Positions 3,307 to 56,810 of a stretch of DNA of 64,000 bases are shown piece after piece. The notes under the pieces were generated by a model, which was given only the letters and a program-made list of their open reading frames with translations, was not told the origin of the DNA and did not search any database. Both the position numbers and the translations under genes were made by a program. This stretch comes from Escherichia coli (lineage in GTDB: Bacteria; Pseudomonadota; Gammaproteobacteria; Enterobacterales; Enterobacteriaceae): assembly GCF_030384885.1 (NCBI RefSeq), contig NZ_CP128613.1, one strand, 5' to 3'. The stretch's first letter is position 1, and each line of letters starts with the position of its first letter.

Positions 3307-4716
3307 ATGCAACGAGGGATAGTCTGGGTAGTCGATGACGATAGTTCCATCCGTTGGGTGCTTGAACGTGCGCTCGCTGGAGCGGGTTTAACCTGTACGA
3401 CATTTGAGAACGGCGCGGAAGTACTGGAGGCGCTGGCGAGCAAAACGCCGGATGTGCTGCTTTCAGATATCCGTATGCCGGGAATGGACGGGCTTGCGCT
3501 GCTCAAGCAGATTAAACAGCGCCATCCGATGCTTCCGGTCATCATTATGACCGCACATTCCGATCTGGATGCTGCCGTCAGCGCCTATCAACAAGGGGCG
3601 TTTGATTATCTGCCCAAACCATTTGATATCGACGAAGCCGTGGCGCTGGTTGAGCGCGCCATCAGCCATTATCAGGAACAGCAGCAACCGCGTAATGTTC
3701 AGCTTAACGGCCCGACGACCGATATCATCGGCGAAGCGCCAGCCATGCAGGACGTGTTCCGGATTATCGGTCGGCTTTCACGTTCTTCTATTAGCGTGCT
3801 GATTAACGGCGAATCCGGCACCGGTAAAGAACTGGTCGCTCATGCCCTGCATCGCCACAGTCCTCGAGCCAAAGCGCCGTTTATCGCGCTGAATATGGCG
3901 GCTATCCCGAAGGATTTGATCGAATCAGAACTGTTCGGTCACGAGAAAGGCGCGTTTACCGGCGCGAATACTATTCGTCAGGGGCGTTTTGAACAGGCCG
4001 ATGGCGGCACGTTATTCCTCGATGAAATTGGCGATATGCCGCTCGATGTACAGACGCGTTTGCTGCGCGTGCTGGCAGACGGTCAGTTTTATCGCGTTGG
4101 CGGCTATGCGCCGGTGAAAGTGGATGTGCGGATTATCGCTGCGACCCATCAGAATCTCGAACAGCGGGTACAGGAAGGCAAGTTCCGTGAGGATTTGTTC
4201 CACCGCCTGAACGTTATCCGCGTTCATCTGCCGCCATTGCGCGAGCGTCGGGAAGATATTCCCCGCCTGGCGCGCCATTTCCTGCAGGTTGCCGCGCGCG
4301 AACTGGGCGTAGAAGCGAAGTTGCTGCATCCGGAAACCGAAGCCGCGCTGACGCGTCTGGCGTGGCCGGGTAACGTACGCCAGCTGGAAAACACCTGTCG
4401 CTGGCTAACGGTGATGGCCGCCGGGCAGGAAGTGTTGATTCAGGATTTGCCTGGCGAACTGTTTGAATCAACCGTAGCGGAAAGCCCTTCGCAATTACAG
4501 CCGGACAGTTGGGCAACGCTGTTAGCGCAGTGGGCAGACAGAGCGCTGCGTTCCGGTCATCAAAACCTGCTTTCCGAAGCGCAGCCTGAGCTTGAGCGGA
4601 CGTTACTGACGACCGCGTTGCGACATACGCAGGGGCATAAACAGGAAGCGGCGCGGCTGCTTGGCTGGGGTCGCAACACACTGACACGTAAGTTAAAAGA
4701 GCTGGGGATGGAGTGA
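3307..4716 (+). CDS. glnG: nitrogen regulation response regulator NtrC (sigma-54 activator)
   Basis: Receiver domain ([18 protein letters not shown]), AAA+ sigma-54 activation domain ([14 protein letters not shown] motif) and C-terminal HTH; start taken at ATG 3307 ([11 protein letters not shown]) rather than the longer track ORF. Confidence 0.97.
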
Positions 4717-50666: not shown

Positions 50667-52928
50667 TCACCCCCGACGCAAATTCTGCGCCGCCTGCACC
50701 ATGTTCGCCAGTGCCGCGCGGGTTTCTGGCCAGCCGCGCGTTTTCAGACCACAGTCCGGGTTGACCCACAGACGCTCTGCCGGAATGCGTTTTGCCGCTT
50801 TCTTCAGCAGGGCTTCAATCCATTCCACGCTCGGTACGTTTGGCGAGTGAATGTCATAGACGCCAGGACCGATTTCATTTGGATAATCAAACTCTTCAAA
50901 CGACTCCAGCAACTCCATGTCGGAACGCGAGGTTTCGATTGTGATGACGTCTGCGTCCAGCGCCGCAATCGAATCCATGATGTCGTTGAACTCGCAGTAA
51001 CACATGTGAGTGTGGATTTGCGTGTCATCTTTCGCTACGGCAGCGTTGATACGGAAAGCCTCCACGCCCCACTGGAGATAGGCATCCCAGTCGCTGCGAC
51101 GCAGCGGTAAACCTTCGCGTAGCGCCGGTTCATCAATCTGGATGATGCCAATTCCAGCGGCTTCCAGATCGGCCACTTCATCACGAAGCGCCAGCGCAAT
51201 TTGTTTGGCGATGGTTTCACGGCTGACATCTTCACGCGGGAACGACCAGCAGAGAATGGTCACCGGGCCAGTCAGCATCCCTTTCACCGGTTTGTCGGTC
51301 AGCGATTGCGCATACTTTGCCCACTCCACGGTAATCGGTGCCGGGCGGCTAACGTCACCAATGACAATCGGCGGTTTCACGCAGCGGGAACCGTAGCTCT
51401 GTACCCAACCGTTTTGTGTAAAGACAAAACCGTCGAGGTGCTCACCAAAGTATTCCACCATGTCATTACGCTCGGCCTCACCATGCACCAGCACATCCAG
51501 ACCCAGACGTTCCTGCTCAACAATGGCCTGCTTGATATGTTCTGCAATGCCCGTACGATAGTTGTTGGCGTCGAGATTACCCTTTTTGAAATCCAGACGC
51601 AGGGTACGGATTTCTGTGGTTTGCGGGAAAGAGCCAATCGTGGTGGTCGGCCACGCGGGCAGTTTAAAACGCGCACGCTGGGCTTCAGCACGCACTTCAT
51701 AGACATTCGCACGCTGACTGTCCTGGGCGGTGATCGCCGCCAGACGCTTTTCTACTGCCGGATTATGTACACGAGTAGAGTGACGACGCGCCTGAATCGG
51801 TGCACTCCACTCTGCCAGAGCTGCCGTGTCACCACTGTTCAGCGCATCGCGCAGCAATGCCAGTTCATGGCATTTTTGCAGGGCGAAGGCAAACCAGCTT
51901 TTCACTTCTGCATCAAGACGCGTTTCCACGCTCAGGTCGATAGGGCTGTGCAGCAATGAGCAGGAAGATGCCACCCACAAATCACGTTTGCCGACAATGT
52001 CCTTAATTTGCGCATATTTCTCGGTAAGATCGGCGCGCCAGACGTTACGACCATTGATAAGACCCGCAGACAGCAGCCAGTCAGAAGGCAGACGCTTGTG
52101 CAGTTCAGCAACGTCATCTTTACCATGTACGAGATCGACATGCAGCCCCTGAACAGGCAGCGCAGTAATGGTGTCGAGGTTTGGCGTTACGCCTTCAAAA
52201 TAGGTGGTCAGCAGCAGTTTCACCTGGCCCTGGAGCGCGTCGTAAGCGGGTTTATAGGCGTCCAGCCACGCCTGCGGCAGTTCCAGCACCAGTGCGGGTT
52301 CGTCGATCTGTACCCACTCAATGCCACGTTTTGCCAGTTCTGCCAACACTTGCTGATAAACCGGCAGAATGTCGTTTAGCAGGCTCAGGCGATCAAACTG
52401 TTCACCTTTCACTTTACCCAGCCACAGGTAGGTAACCGGTCCCAGCAGCACGGGCTTGACCTTGTGGCCCAGCGCCAGCGCCTCGTCCACTTCCTCCAGC
52501 AGCTGCGTCCAGGTCAGTTTGAACTGTTGGCCTTTAACGAACTCCGGCACCATGTAGTGATAGTTGGTGTTAAACCATTTGGTCATTTCCGCTGCCGCCG
52601 CAGGTTCGCCAGTCGGCGCACGTCCACGACCAATACGGAACAGGGTGTCGATATCTACCGAACCATCTTTGTTCTGATGACGTGGCGGAACGTTACCCAG
52701 CAGCAGACTGGTGGTCAGTACATGATCGTACCAGGCAAAATCGCCCACCGGCAGCAGGTCGATACCCGCTTGCTTTTGTTGATCCCAGTGACGAGCACGC
52801 AGTTCACGCCCTACCGCCAGCAGTTCTTCACGCGTGGTGTTCCCGGCCCAATAACTCTCTTGCGCTTTTTTCAGCTCGCGACGCAGGCCAACGCGAGGGA
52901 AACCGAGGGTGTGATTCAATATTGTCAT
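50667..52928 (-). CDS. metE: cobalamin-independent methionine synthase
   Basis: 753-aa ORF ([30 protein letters not shown]...). Confidence 0.97.
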
Positions 52929-53163
52929 TTTTCTTCCTCTAATTATATGTAAATCCTATGGATTTTGAATTTAGGGAAGGCGGCAAGTTTATTCATCCCC
53001 GGGAGCTTACTGAAGTAAGTGACCGGGGTGAAGAAACGCAGCCAACGCACCATAAATTTAAAAGACGAAGGATTTTAGCCGTCCAGATGTTTACACATCC
53101 ATAATTGGCGGTTACTGTATATTCCTCAAGCGCAAATTATTCATGCCGAAGTGAAGGACTTTC

Positions 53164-54117
53164 ATGATCGAAGTAAAACACCTGAAAACGCTACAAGCGT
53201 TGCGGAACTGCGGCTCACTCGCAGCCGCTGCGGCGACGTTGCATCAAACGCAATCCGCCCTGTCTCACCAGTTTAGCGATCTGGAACAACGCCTTGGCTT
53301 CCGGCTATTTGTGCGTAAAAGCCAGCCGCTTCGGTTTACACCGCAGGGAGAAATCCTGTTGCAACTGGCGAATCAGGTGCTGCCGCAAATCAGCCAGGCA
53401 CTGCAAGCCTGCAATGAACCGCAGCAGACGCGCCTGCGCATTGCCATTGAGTGCCATAGCTGTATTCAGTGGCTGACGCCCGCGTTAGAAAATTTCCATA
53501 AGAACTGGCCGCAGGTGGAGATGGATTTTAAATCGGGCGTGACGTTTGACCCGCAGCCCGCGTTGCAGCAGGGTGAGCTGGATCTGGTGATGACCTCCGA
53601 TATTCTGCCGCGCAGTGGCCTGCATTATTCGCCGATGTTCGATTATGAAGTGCGTCTGGTGTTGGCACCTGACCATCCACTGGCGACAAAAACGCGAATC
53701 ACGCCGGAAGATCTCGCCAGCGAAACGCTGTTGATTTATCCGGTGCAGCGTAGCCGACTGGATGTCTGGCGGCATTTTCTTCAGCCCGCAGGCGTTAGCC
53801 CGTCACTGAAAAGCGTCGATAACACCTTGTTGTTGATTCAGATGGTTGCCGCGCGGATGGGCATCGCTGCGCTACCGCACTGGGTGGTGGAGAGTTTTGA
53901 ACGCCAGGGTCTGGTGGTCACCAAAACCCTGGGCGAAGGCTTGTGGAGCCGACTGTACGCCGCCGTGCGCGATGGCGAGCAGCGTCAGCCGATTACAGAA
54001 GCGTTTATTCGCTCAGCGCGCAATCACGCCTGCGATCATCTGCCGTTTGTGAAGAGCGCGGAGCGACCCACTTACGATGCACCCACAGTGAGGCCAGGAT
54101 CACCAGCGCGCCTGTAA
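53164..54117 (+). CDS. metR: LysR-family transcriptional regulator MetR
   Basis: 317-aa ORF with N-terminal LysR HTH ([39 protein letters not shown]); divergent from metE. Confidence 0.96.
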
Positions 54118-54904
54118 TAAACGTTGGCCAGTGCGGCTGTTGGTGCCAGATAGCCAGGTTAACCAACAGCCCTGCCGGAACGTGCATATTATTCATAATG
54201 CCCAGCGTTCCGGCGTCCACCTGAGTCGCGCCGTAGTTCCACATAAAGTAGCCAATACCGGAAGCCACCACGCCAAGAAACACCAGAATGCCCCATTGCA
54301 GCGTGGTTTGCGGCATTTTCTGCGCATTTCCCAGCAAGAACCATGCAATCACCGCCACCAGGAACGCGCCAAGATAGAACCACGCAAAGGCGTTATGCTG
54401 CGGCATCGGGCGAGTTTCCATCAGGCGTTTGTAACCCACCATGCCGATGGCAAAAGTGATATTGGAGAGTTGTACCAGTAACAGGCCGGTCCAGAAGTGG
54501 TCGGTGACCTGATCATAGCGAATAATTCCGGCACCAATCACCGCCAACAAGGCGCTAAAAGCATAGCCCCAGCGCAGACGGCGCTTACTCATGATGTCAT
54601 AAATCAGCGTGATGTAGAGCGGAGTCAGTACGGTGAACAGCAACAGCTCGGAGACCGTCAGGTAGAGATAGGCGCGAAAACTCAGCATATACATCACGCC
54701 AAGCTGCATCGCGCCCACCAGCATATACAGGCCAACCGTTTTCAGGCTATTGCCACGGGTACGCAGAAACGGCAGAAACACGAGTGCCGCCAGGCCAACG
54801 CGCACCAGCACTGCAAAATAGCTATCGACGTGCCCCGCAAGGTACTCGCCATAAAAGCTAAAGGAGAAGGCCCACAGAATCGTGGTGATGATAAGTAGCG
54901 CCAC
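54005..54904 (-). CDS. yigM: DMT-family inner membrane transporter YigM (BioP-like)
   Basis: 299-aa ten-TM EamA-type protein; its 3' end overlaps the metR 3' end on the opposite strand. Confidence 0.9.
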
Positions 54905-54979
54905 AATGGAAAACTCTTTGATTAACGAGTATCCATTGTAGCGAAGTATCAGGTTGACAACTGACCAAATAAAGAACGA

Positions 54980-55780
54980 TTACGATAAATAGAGTTTACG
55001 CAGATAATGCGGCACCGCGTCTTCGGCATTAGTACCAATCACTTCCAGCTCCGGATGCAGATCTTTCAGACGCTGGTGCGCACTGCCCATAATGCAGCCT
55101 TTACCTGCCATCGACAGCATTTCGGCGTCGTTCATCCCGTCACCAAAGGCAATACAATCTTTCAGACTGTAGCCCAGTTTCTTCGCCACCGCTTCCAGGG
55201 CATGGCCTTTTGAAACGCCGCCCGCCATCACTTCCAGACAAGTTAGGGTAGAGAAACTGACATTGACGCGATCGCCCCAACGAGCGTTGATTGCCTGTTC
55301 CAGCGGCAGCAGTTGTTCATGAGAATCACAGGTGAAGAACACTTTACTGACGCCTTCCGGATCCAGTAATCCTGGCTCATACAGCGCATACTTGAACACC
55401 GCTTCTTTAAAAAAGCGCATCTCTTCCGGGCGGTGGCGATTCATAAACCATTCGTCGTCGCGATAAACGTTAGTAATGATGTCCGGGTTGTCGTTGACCA
55501 CGCCAAACAGATCGCTGGCAATGTCGCGATCCAGGTTATGAGCAAAAATCAGATTGCCATCCAGATCGTGAACACGCGCGCCATTGGAGGTAATCATGTA
55601 AGACTTAATCTCCAGATTATCGCGAATTTGCCCTACATCAACGTGGTGGCGACCGGTCGCAAACACAAAGTTAATGCCGCGCGCGGTGAGGAGCTTCAGA
55701 GTTTCTTTGGCGTAAGGGGATAACGTATGGTCGGGAGAAAGTAACGTGCCATCTAAATCAGACGCAACAACCTGGTACAT
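54980..55780 (-). CDS. yigL: HAD-family sugar phosphatase YigL
   Basis: 266-aa ORF from MYQVVASDLDGTLL (HAD motif I DxDGT); start chosen inside the longer track ORF. Confidence 0.9.
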   Translation of the reverse strand: MYQVVASDLDGTLLSPDHTLSPYAKETLKLLTARGINFVFATGRHHVDVGQIRDNLEIKSYMITSNGARVHDLDGNLIFAHNLDRDIASDLFGVVNDNPDIITNVYRDDEWFMNRHRPEEMRFFKEAVFKYALYEPGLLDPEGVSKVFFTCDSHEQLLPLEQAINARWGDRVNVSFSTLTCLEVMAGGVSKGHALEAVAKKLGYSLKDCIAFGDGMNDAEMLSMAGKGCIMGSAHQRLKDLHPELEVIGTNAEDAVPHYLRKLYLS

Positions 55781-55787
55781 AAGAAAT

Positions 55788-56810
55788 TTAAACCTCTGTA
55801 GAGCGGTTTCCGCTGGGTGAGTTATGCCTGTTGAAAAAATCAACAATGGCGTGGAGCGCGACTGAGCGCATTGCGTCCTTTTCAAAAAGGATCTCATGGT
55901 ACGCACCTTTAATTACCAGCGGTCGTCCTCCTTCGACAGGATGGCCCGCAGCGGTGCGGAGTTCACAAAAACGGTCGTGCATGCGGTTATCCACCACGCG
56001 TTCCTCTTCAGCCTGCAAGAGAAGCGTTGGCGTGGCGTCATCACCCGCACCGGCTAACACCTGTTCGCCAGCCAGAATACTTTCGCGTACCCAATGGTAG
56101 GTCGGCCCACCGACGCGAATCGTTGGGTCATCAGCATAGAAGCGTAAGTTACGTCGATATCGCTGTCTGCTGTGGGTCAGTACGTTGATAGCAAACGGCA
56201 ACGCGCGCCAGCGCCCGGTGCCTATTGCATAGCCATCACGGAAACGTGGATGTGCTTCGGCCCAGTTAAGGATCTGCCGCGCCATAAATGACGGCATACG
56301 AATCACGATCCCAAACATTGGTGCAGTTAGCGCAATGGCGTCACATACACCTGGATGGCGTTGCAGAAATAACGTGGAGATCGCACCGCCCATCGAATGT
56401 GCCAGTATATAGCGCTTACGCCACGGACCGGGCTGGACCTCCTGTTGCCAGAATGCCGCCAGATCATCAACATAATCATTGAAGCGATTAACATGCCCAA
56501 GATGCGGATCGGCTAACAGGCGACCGGAACGTCCCTGCCCGCGATGGTCGATGATTAAGACATCAAACCCCAAATGGAACAGGTCGTAGGCCAGTTCCGC
56601 ATATTTTACGTAGCTCTCAATACGCCCCGGGCAGATGACTACCACCCGGTCATGGTGCTGTGCGCGAAAACGGACAAAGCGCACCGGAATGTCATCTACA
56701 CCAGTAAACTCTGCTTCATCACGCTGACGCCAGAAATCAGTCAGCGGTCCCATGGTAAAAGCAGCAAACGCGTTTTCTCTTGTTTCCCAGTCTTTTTGCT
56801 GCTGAAACAT
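55788..56810 (-). CDS. pldB: lysophospholipase L2
   Basis: 340-aa alpha/beta hydrolase with GHSMGG nucleophile motif. Confidence 0.95.
   Translation of the reverse strand: MFQQQKDWETRENAFAAFTMGPLTDFWRQRDEAEFTGVDDIPVRFVRFRAQHHDRVVVICPGRIESYVKYAELAYDLFHLGFDVLIIDHRGQGRSGRLLADPHLGHVNRFNDYVDDLAAFWQQEVQPGPWRKRYILAHSMGGAISTLFLQRHPGVCDAIALTAPMFGIVIRMPSFMARQILNWAEAHPRFRDGYAIGTGRWRALPFAINVLTHSRQRYRRNLRFYADDPTIRVGGPTYHWVRESILAGEQVLAGAGDDATPTLLLQAEEERVVDNRMHDRFCELRTAAGHPVEGGRPLVIKGAYHEILFEKDAMRSVALHAIVDFFNRHNSPSGNRSTEV

Follow-up and report, generated by a model that had tools for sequence, protein, structure and literature searches.

The metR-bioP overlap of Escherichia coli as a probably ancient tail-to-tail arrangement of two functional genes with C-terminal tails that are very probably mostly passengers

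The convergent genes metR and bioP (yigM) of Escherichia coli run into each other's 3′ coding sequence, which raises the question of whether so long an antisense overlap is the ordinary state of this locus or the product of a displaced stop codon, and, if ordinary, what accounts for its constancy. We addressed these questions in a stretch of 64,000 nucleotides from contig NZ_CP128613.1 of the E. coli assembly GCF_030384885.1, hereinafter the window. A preliminary description of this DNA had reported a convergent overlap of 113 bp at 54005-54117, which is exact according to the table of open reading frames (ORFs) and recurs in the RefSeq annotations of strains 2013C-4282 and K-12. Likewise, the annotations of these two strains bear out its statement that both ORFs are full length. 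We posit that this is very probably a true overlap, tail to tail, between two functional genes, one that is old and has been described before, and that its tails are for the most part passengers.

Both metR and bioP are real protein-coding genes, as is evident from Pfam, PDB and RefSeq as well as from the genetic results of Côté et al. 2016 (PMC5120140). MetR displays the features of its class, namely an N-terminal HTH_1 domain (Pfam, aa 5-63, E = 4e-18) followed by a LysR substrate-binding domain (LysR_substrate, aa 86-288, E = 2e-47), with metE as the divergently transcribed neighbor. Its matches in the PDB include 5fo5, the DNA-binding domain of E. coli MetR (residues 1-92), and 4ab5, the effector domain of the Neisseria MetR. 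BioP shows two EamA stretches in Pfam, and its AF2 model (pTM 0.84) has 11 helical elements, in keeping with the two repeats and the approximately ten-helix membrane bundle of the DMT/EamA class; the assignment of biotin transport to BioP/YigM comes from Côté et al. 2016 (PMC5120140). The gene order metE-metR-bioP is common to the Yersinia, Serratia, Pectobacterium, Mixta, Pantoea, Rahnella and Paramixta loci that were inspected. On the far side of bioP, the mechanically called yigL ORF has 308 aa, starting from a GTG at 55906, while the RefSeq version has 266 aa (801 nt, 54980-55780); the upstream extension beyond the RefSeq start is probably not translated. The locus in the window also departs somewhat from the common E. 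coli sequence: over its 2 kb (53000-55000) it is approximately 97.3% identical to most E. coli genomes, with only 16 out of 5425 reaching at least 99% identity and the bulk lying near 97.3%, and the MetR of the window is 100% identical to those of the Escherichia whittamii and Escherichia sp. MOD1 loci. By these measures, the window seems to derive from a divergent lineage of E. coli or of Escherichia.

Table 1. The metR-bioP locus in the window, the anatomy of the overlap, and the state of the locus in other genera
Feature	Coordinates	Strand	Description
metE	50667-52928	-	Divergent from metR; ORF table and RefSeq
metR CDS	53164-54117	+	ATG start; 317 aa; LysR-type regulator of metE/metH; ORF table, Pfam, PDB, RefSeq
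bioP (yigM) CDS	54005-54904	-	GTG start; 299 aa; DMT/EamA-family biotin transporter; ORF table, Pfam, RefSeq
yigL	54980-55780	-	Same strand as bioP, downstream neighbor; RefSeq coordinates mapped onto the window
Antisense CDS overlap, metR/bioP	54005-54117	both	113 bp = 37 codons + 2 nt
bioP stop TAA	54005-54007	-	Antisense of MetR Phe281 (TTT) bases 2-3 and Ile282 (ATT) base 1
Zone A	54008-54051	both	Last helix of the MetR core, aa 282-296 (+), over the BioP C-terminal tail, aa 285-299 (-)
Zone B	54052-54070	both	19 nt, tail over tail: MetR K/R-S/N-A-E-R-P 297-302, BioP W-V-A-P-R-S 279-284
Zone C	54071-54114	both	Last BioP transmembrane helix, aa 264-278 (-), over the MetR C-terminal tail, aa 303-317 (+)
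metR stop TAA (TGA in some species)	54115-54117	+	Antisense of BioP Ile263 bases 2-3 and Thr264 base 1, in the run Phe262-Ile263-Thr264
Second in-frame TAA after the metR stop	54118-54120	+	
Yersinia			113-bp overlap; MetR 317 aa; BioP 299 aa
Rahnella			95-bp overlap; MetR 311 aa; BioP 299 aa
Pectobacterium			95-bp overlap; MetR 311 aa; BioP 299 aa
Dickeya			98-bp overlap; MetR 312 aa; BioP 299 aa
Serratia			32-bp spacer with a terminator-like hairpin (10-bp stem); MetR 316 aa; BioP 287 aa
Mixta			Spacer and inserted small ORF; MetR 307 aa; BioP 282 aa
Pantoea			Spacer and inserted DUF1456 gene; MetR 313 aa; BioP 287 aa
Paramixta			Spacer and inserted DUF1456 gene; MetR 312 aa; BioP 287 aa

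The preliminary description was uncertain as to whether the overlap is the reference arrangement or results from a C-terminal extension of one of the genes. Comparison with K-12, with 80 Enterobacteriaceae species and with Yersinia establishes it as the reference arrangement. In the RefSeq annotation of K-12 MG1655, bioP occupies 4011076..4011975 and metR 4011863..4012816, which again overlap by 113 bp, and strain 2013C-4282, which is 100% identical to the window over 2 kb, has the same CDS coordinates there in RefSeq. The metR-bioP locus as such was found in 5425 of 5426 complete E. coli genomes. Scanning one genome per species yielded 80 Enterobacteriaceae loci, of which 77 have an overlap of exactly 113 bp, with the remaining three at 98, 116 and 116 bp; the 98-bp overlap, from Citrobacter gillenii (locus L027), is shorter because the MetR stop comes earlier, giving a MetR of 312 aa. 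The overlap is thus conserved in orthologous pairs, with neither a lineage-specific frameshift nor a lost stop. In an evolutionary sense, the suspected extension is also partly real, in that both proteins are longer than their non-overlapping orthologues (BioP 299 aa vs 282-287 aa and MetR 317 aa vs 307-316 aa). A stop displaced by a frameshift or a sequencing error, which the preliminary description had named as the refuting outcome, did not emerge upon alignment of the orthologues, which share the same frames and stops in 77 of the 80 species and in Yersinia. More distant BioP homologues from Vibrio and Microbulbifer (about 51% identity, 292-294 aa) do not adjoin metR. In one Dickeya contig (L083 556-1455; Logan SRR11696187; P0123), about 45 aa of BioP, roughly aa 205-250, are out of frame with respect to every other BioP sequence before the frame is regained, which hints at paired indels or at misassembly of the contig. 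A seeming outgroup with 58% identity (L092 and L093; Logan SRR18107612 and SRR18107614) was discarded as an apparent assembly of bisulfite-converted reads: it has 30% GC and a plus strand almost free of C, and its MetR and BioP frames are of the E. coli type after C-to-T conversion and filled with stops. The same artefact also created a separate cluster at 50% identity (P0130).

The MetR core ends at about aa 296 (nt 54051), a boundary based on Pfam, where the LysR_substrate match extends to aa 288, and on the alignment to 4ab5, which extends to aa 296; an AlphaFold model of MetR, built with 11 close orthologues aligned, had a mean pLDDT of 39 and was set aside for locating the core end. The BioP core ends at about aa 278 (nt 54071), with the last EamA stretch reaching aa 275 and the alignments of distant homologues ending at aa 270-285 (these homologues come from a search of representatives, another search having returned only relatives with at least 82% identity). 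Consistent with this, the AF2 model of BioP is confident up to about aa 280, and its pLDDT drops below 50 for aa 286-299. Given that the cores end at these positions, the folded cores of MetR and BioP share no DNA, and each tail of about 15-20 aa is read from the antisense of the core of its partner (Zones A and C in Table 1). Across the overlap the codons face each other such that position 1 is opposite position 1 and position 2 is opposite position 3 of the partner. In the convention used for naming the phases this is phase 1 (length mod 3 = 2), reported in the same source as the most common one among long convergent overlaps.

The substitution pattern changes from one frame to the other within the overlap. 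Per-site entropy was determined over 75 species and is given here for metR codon positions 1/2/3. In 54008-54051 it amounts to 0.08/0.02/0.70, as compared to 0.18/0.08/0.92 in the metR-only region; hence, the variation lies at the metR wobble position, which is position 2 of the codons of the BioP tail. In 54071-54114 it amounts to 0.32/0.97/0.25, as compared to 0.31/1.03/0.13 in the bioP-only region, i.e., the variation lies at the bioP wobble position, which is position 2 of metR. The stretch 54052-54070, in between, has low values at all three positions (0.10/0.22/0.20), with 54058-54070 being almost invariant, and it encodes the nearly fixed residues Ala-Glu-Arg-Pro 299-302 of MetR and Trp-Val-Ala-Pro-Arg 279-283 of BioP. 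At the protein level, the mean pairwise amino acid identity of the MetR tail (303-317) is 0.575 as against 0.935 for its core, and that of the BioP tail (286-299) is 0.717 as against 0.869 for its core, while those tail residues that are invariant are shadows of conserved residues in the partner.

A single observation goes beyond this pattern. The nucleotides 54004-54009, which encode Phe281-Ile282 of MetR as TTT ATT, are invariant in the 75 Enterobacteriaceae species, both wobble bases included. Such invariance is shared by only 5.4% of the metR wobble sites. Of the two bases, 54006 lies in the middle of the bioP stop, and 54009 forms position 2 of the codon for BioP Glu299. At the Ile282 codon the non-overlapping genes have other sequences, ATC in Serratia and GTC in Pantoea. 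Along with the conservation of both frames at 54052-54070, the invariant Glu299 codon is indirect evidence that the two frames may be translated as far as their annotated stops. The alignment hints at weak selection, acting on the far C-terminus of BioP, on the context of its stop or on the nucleotides themselves, and the invariance of 54006 and 54009 is the sole signal that the passenger model does not explain. Two other candidate signals of this kind were not significant: the metR wobble positions over the BioP tail have a lower mean entropy than elsewhere (0.70 vs 0.92), but 9.8% of metR windows of equal length have values as low; and avoidance of GTY at Val296 before a codon starting with A, a combination that would truncate BioP, was seen in 13 of 14 as against 57 of 66 species.

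Taking these observations together, we propose that each frame runs past the end of its own core into the antisense of the partner core and continues up to the first stop it meets there, and that each of these stops is created by conserved codons of the partner, a Phe-Ile pair (TTY ATH). Under this proposal, MetR 303-317 and BioP 285/286-299 would be mostly passengers, which change along with the synonymous changes of the partner, are poorly conserved and can be lost, and constraint from both frames would operate only in the 19 nt between the cores (54052-54070). The overlap would keep a stable length both because conserved codons of the partner fix the two stops and because an indel anywhere within it would shift the frame of both genes. 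The extent of the tails is also unexceptional: stops occur once per 35 codons in the BioP frame over metR and once per 16 codons in the MetR frame over bioP, and tails of 15-20 codons are therefore expected by chance. Moreover, both tails are cut short in some natural alleles. The BioP of L063 and that of P0075 stop at 284 aa, and that of P0076, a Salmonella Gaminara cluster, at 285 aa. In L063, one of the species of the scan, the stop at BioP codon 285 arises from GTC + AGG, both of which are synonymous in MetR; MetR is naturally truncated to 312 aa in L027.

The distribution of the overlap points to its antiquity. Among the loci sampled, from the Enterobacteriaceae, Yersiniaceae, Pectobacteriaceae and Erwiniaceae, it is found in the first three families, and it is probably older than their split. 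Serratia, where the genes are separate, offers a view of how such an overlap might be undone. The tail of its MetR (RDAARPSAGVASVKPLASQP) is similar to the tails that the overlap encodes in Rahnella and Yersinia. In nucleotide sequence, the tail of Serratia metR aligns to Rahnella 3389-3422 (26/34 identical, p<0.001 vs shuffles) and the 3′ end of Serratia bioP aligns to Rahnella 3397-3453 (44/57 identical, p<0.001 vs shuffles). As a result, 26 nt that are present as a single copy in the Rahnella overlap are represented twice in Serratia, once per gene, at 76-77% identity. In a Serratia liquefaciens-type locus (L089 3452-3483), the 32-bp spacer carries a GC-rich hairpin with a 10-bp stem, with AAATAT before it and GTTTATTT after it, and this hairpin is a possible bidirectional terminator. 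The simplest reading of the twice-represented 26 nt is that an overlapping ancestor was resolved by a short duplication and a terminator; the Serratia arrangement thus appears to have arisen by part-duplication of the overlap together with the gain of the hairpin. In the Erwiniaceae, another gene lies between metR and bioP (L094 3551-4027, L096 3537-4016 and L091 3612-3860), exactly at the place of the overlap; it codes for a DUF1456 protein in Pantoea and Paramixta and is an unrelated 82-aa ORF in Mixta. In the commonly accepted phylogeny of the order, the Erwiniaceae group with the Enterobacteriaceae, and if so grouped, their non-overlapping state is probably secondary too. When the tail DNA of these genera was searched for a similar origin by duplication, the signal was marginal in Mixta and not significant in Pantoea and Paramixta.

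The arrangement has direct consequences for transcription. The preliminary description had held that it leaves no room for separate terminators, and indeed no intrinsic-terminator-like site was recovered within 400 nt downstream of either stop. Specifically, a consensus scan identified no intrinsic terminator near 54005-54117 (no sigma-70-terminator-like site), and folding in sliding windows over the 400 nt downstream of each stop uncovered hairpins, none of them followed by a U-tract. Likewise, a shared bidirectional intrinsic terminator, with a GC-rich hairpin between an A-tract and a T-tract, is absent between or just after the stops in E. coli, and no Rfam match was obtained in the region at E<=1. 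C exceeds G in both downstream stretches (C 33-37% and G 21-29% in the first windows), a composition that is compatible with Rho-dependent termination, though no proof of it. As intergenic DNA and intrinsic terminators are both missing, each transcript has to enter the coding region of the partner; either mRNA then carries 113 nt or more of sequence antisense to the other, and the 3′ ends are bound to be complementary. The transcripts probably end by Rho-dependent termination or by collision of polymerases. RNA-seq agrees with the earlier statement that each gene is transcribed through the 3′ coding region of the other: ExcludonFinder 2025 (PMC12288877), which is based on such data, includes bioP-metR in a set of 165 convergent pairs, the criterion being transcript overlap in half or more of 58 MG1655 RNA-seq samples. 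Regulatory antisense interference between metR and bioP, which the preliminary description had also raised as a possibility, is plausible. A literature search for antisense or termination data on yigM found nothing, and none of the papers found measures mutual repression between metR and bioP.

This brings up the best surviving alternative to the passenger reading, namely that the overlap is a functional excludon: selection would keep it for setting metR and bioP expression against each other, through convergent transcription or through RNase III cleavage of the paired 3′ ends, and methionine/SAM regulation would thereby be coupled to biotin uptake. Biotin synthesis consumes SAM (BioA, BioB, BioC), and a metabolic link, which would speak for this proposal, is conceivable. 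It also draws some support from the lack of an intrinsic terminator in E. coli and from the retention of the exact geometry across the Enterobacteriaceae and Yersinia; selection for the overlap as such could also be the reason why precisely 113 bp persist from E. coli to Yersinia. Further, bioP-metR belongs to the E. coli "excludome" of ExcludonFinder (PMC12288877), but overlapping coding sequences satisfy the definition used there trivially. Moreover, the two protein frames fully account for the substitution pattern, and the anchoring of both stops in conserved codons of the partner explains why the length is stable. The genes are also separated in Serratia, with a terminator between them, and in three genera of Erwiniaceae, and hence the overlap is dispensable. 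We consequently regard a functional excludon as unlikely. A fuller version, in which the overlap is a selected regulatory device that renders metR and bioP antagonistic and links the methionine/SAM status sensed by MetJ/MetR to biotin import, and hence has kept the 113-bp geometry, the bioP TAA and the Glu299 codon frozen from E. coli to Yersinia, appears a little less likely still.

Considerably less probable is true dual coding, whereby both tails are functional and purifying selection acts in both frames over the whole 113 bp. Conservation at all three codon positions in both frames is indeed seen in 54052-54070, the metR wobble sites that fall in the BioP Glu299 codon and in the TAA stop do not vary, and the tail lengths are kept in 77 of the 80 species. 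However, the reduction of wobble variation in both frames that dual coding entails is confined to 54052-54070 and is absent across the rest of the overlap, and outside these 19 nt variation at the wobble positions of the partner alters the amino acids of the tails freely. Natural lineages do without the last 14-15 residues of BioP or the last 5 of MetR, the non-overlapping orthologues have different and shorter tails, and aa 286-299 of BioP have a pLDDT below 50 in the AF2 model.

Finally, the notion that the overlap is unreal, with a stop displaced by a frameshift, a sequencing error or misannotation, has next to no probability left: although Pallejà et al. 2008 (PMC2478687) regarded most of the 968 annotated overlaps longer than 60 bp in their survey as misannotations, they allow convergent overlaps as the one class that can be real, K-12 and strain 2013C-4282 have the same coordinates, the frames and stops recur in Yersinia and in 77 of 80 species sequenced independently, the phenotype of the metR deletion indicates that the bioP 3′ region within metR is needed (Côté et al. 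2016, PMC5120140), and the frameshift and sequencing-error variants are refuted by the orthologue comparison with the RefSeq annotation and the 80 species loci.

Thus, the passenger reading of a genuine overlap stands as the best explanation, and the overlap itself, being both annotated and published, is already known and ordinary for this locus. It is identical to that of the K-12 metR/bioP pair (b3828/b3827; Côté et al. 2016, PMC5120140) in its extent, in the lengths of both proteins and in the effect of the metR deletion on bioP; that study noted the substantial overlap of yigM and metR, which explains why the Keio metR deletion behaves as a biotin-transport mutant. In practical terms, deletions or insertions at the 3′ end of metR also damage bioP, and the reverse, and the knockout phenotypes of metR or yigM consequently need to be read with care. 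More generally, the locus offers a clean, well-sampled and textbook-like case of how a long antisense overlap can endure over very long spans of evolution with no true dual coding, with Serratia showing how it can be undone by duplication; a new question is opened only if the antisense transcription proves to be regulatory.

In comparison to other systems, metR-bioP resembles excludons (PMC12288877) in being a convergent pair with necessarily overlapping transcripts that is listed in the E. coli excludome. However, in classical excludons it is long UTRs that overlap, and reciprocal regulation has been demonstrated, while metR-bioP overlaps in its coding sequences and its regulatory effect is putative. 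With convergent pairs that share a bidirectional intrinsic terminator it has in common that two transcripts have to end in a very short space, for which Serratia uses the spacer hairpin, but unlike in such pairs the E. coli genes have neither a spacer nor, within 400 nt of the two stops, a hairpin followed by a U-tract. Long gene overlaps of the convergent kind that are conserved among prokaryotes were reportedly described by Rogozin and colleagues in 2002. A further likeness is to the conserved long convergent overlaps of Pallejà, Harrington and Bork 2008 (PMC2478687), the only class of overlaps longer than 60 bp that they found may be real: as in those, the overlap exceeds 60 bp, joins well-characterized genes that are both extended at the 3′ end, and places wobble bases opposite position 2. 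In contrast to most of their cases, which are kept only in very close species, the metR-bioP overlap has been kept in at least three families of the Enterobacterales.
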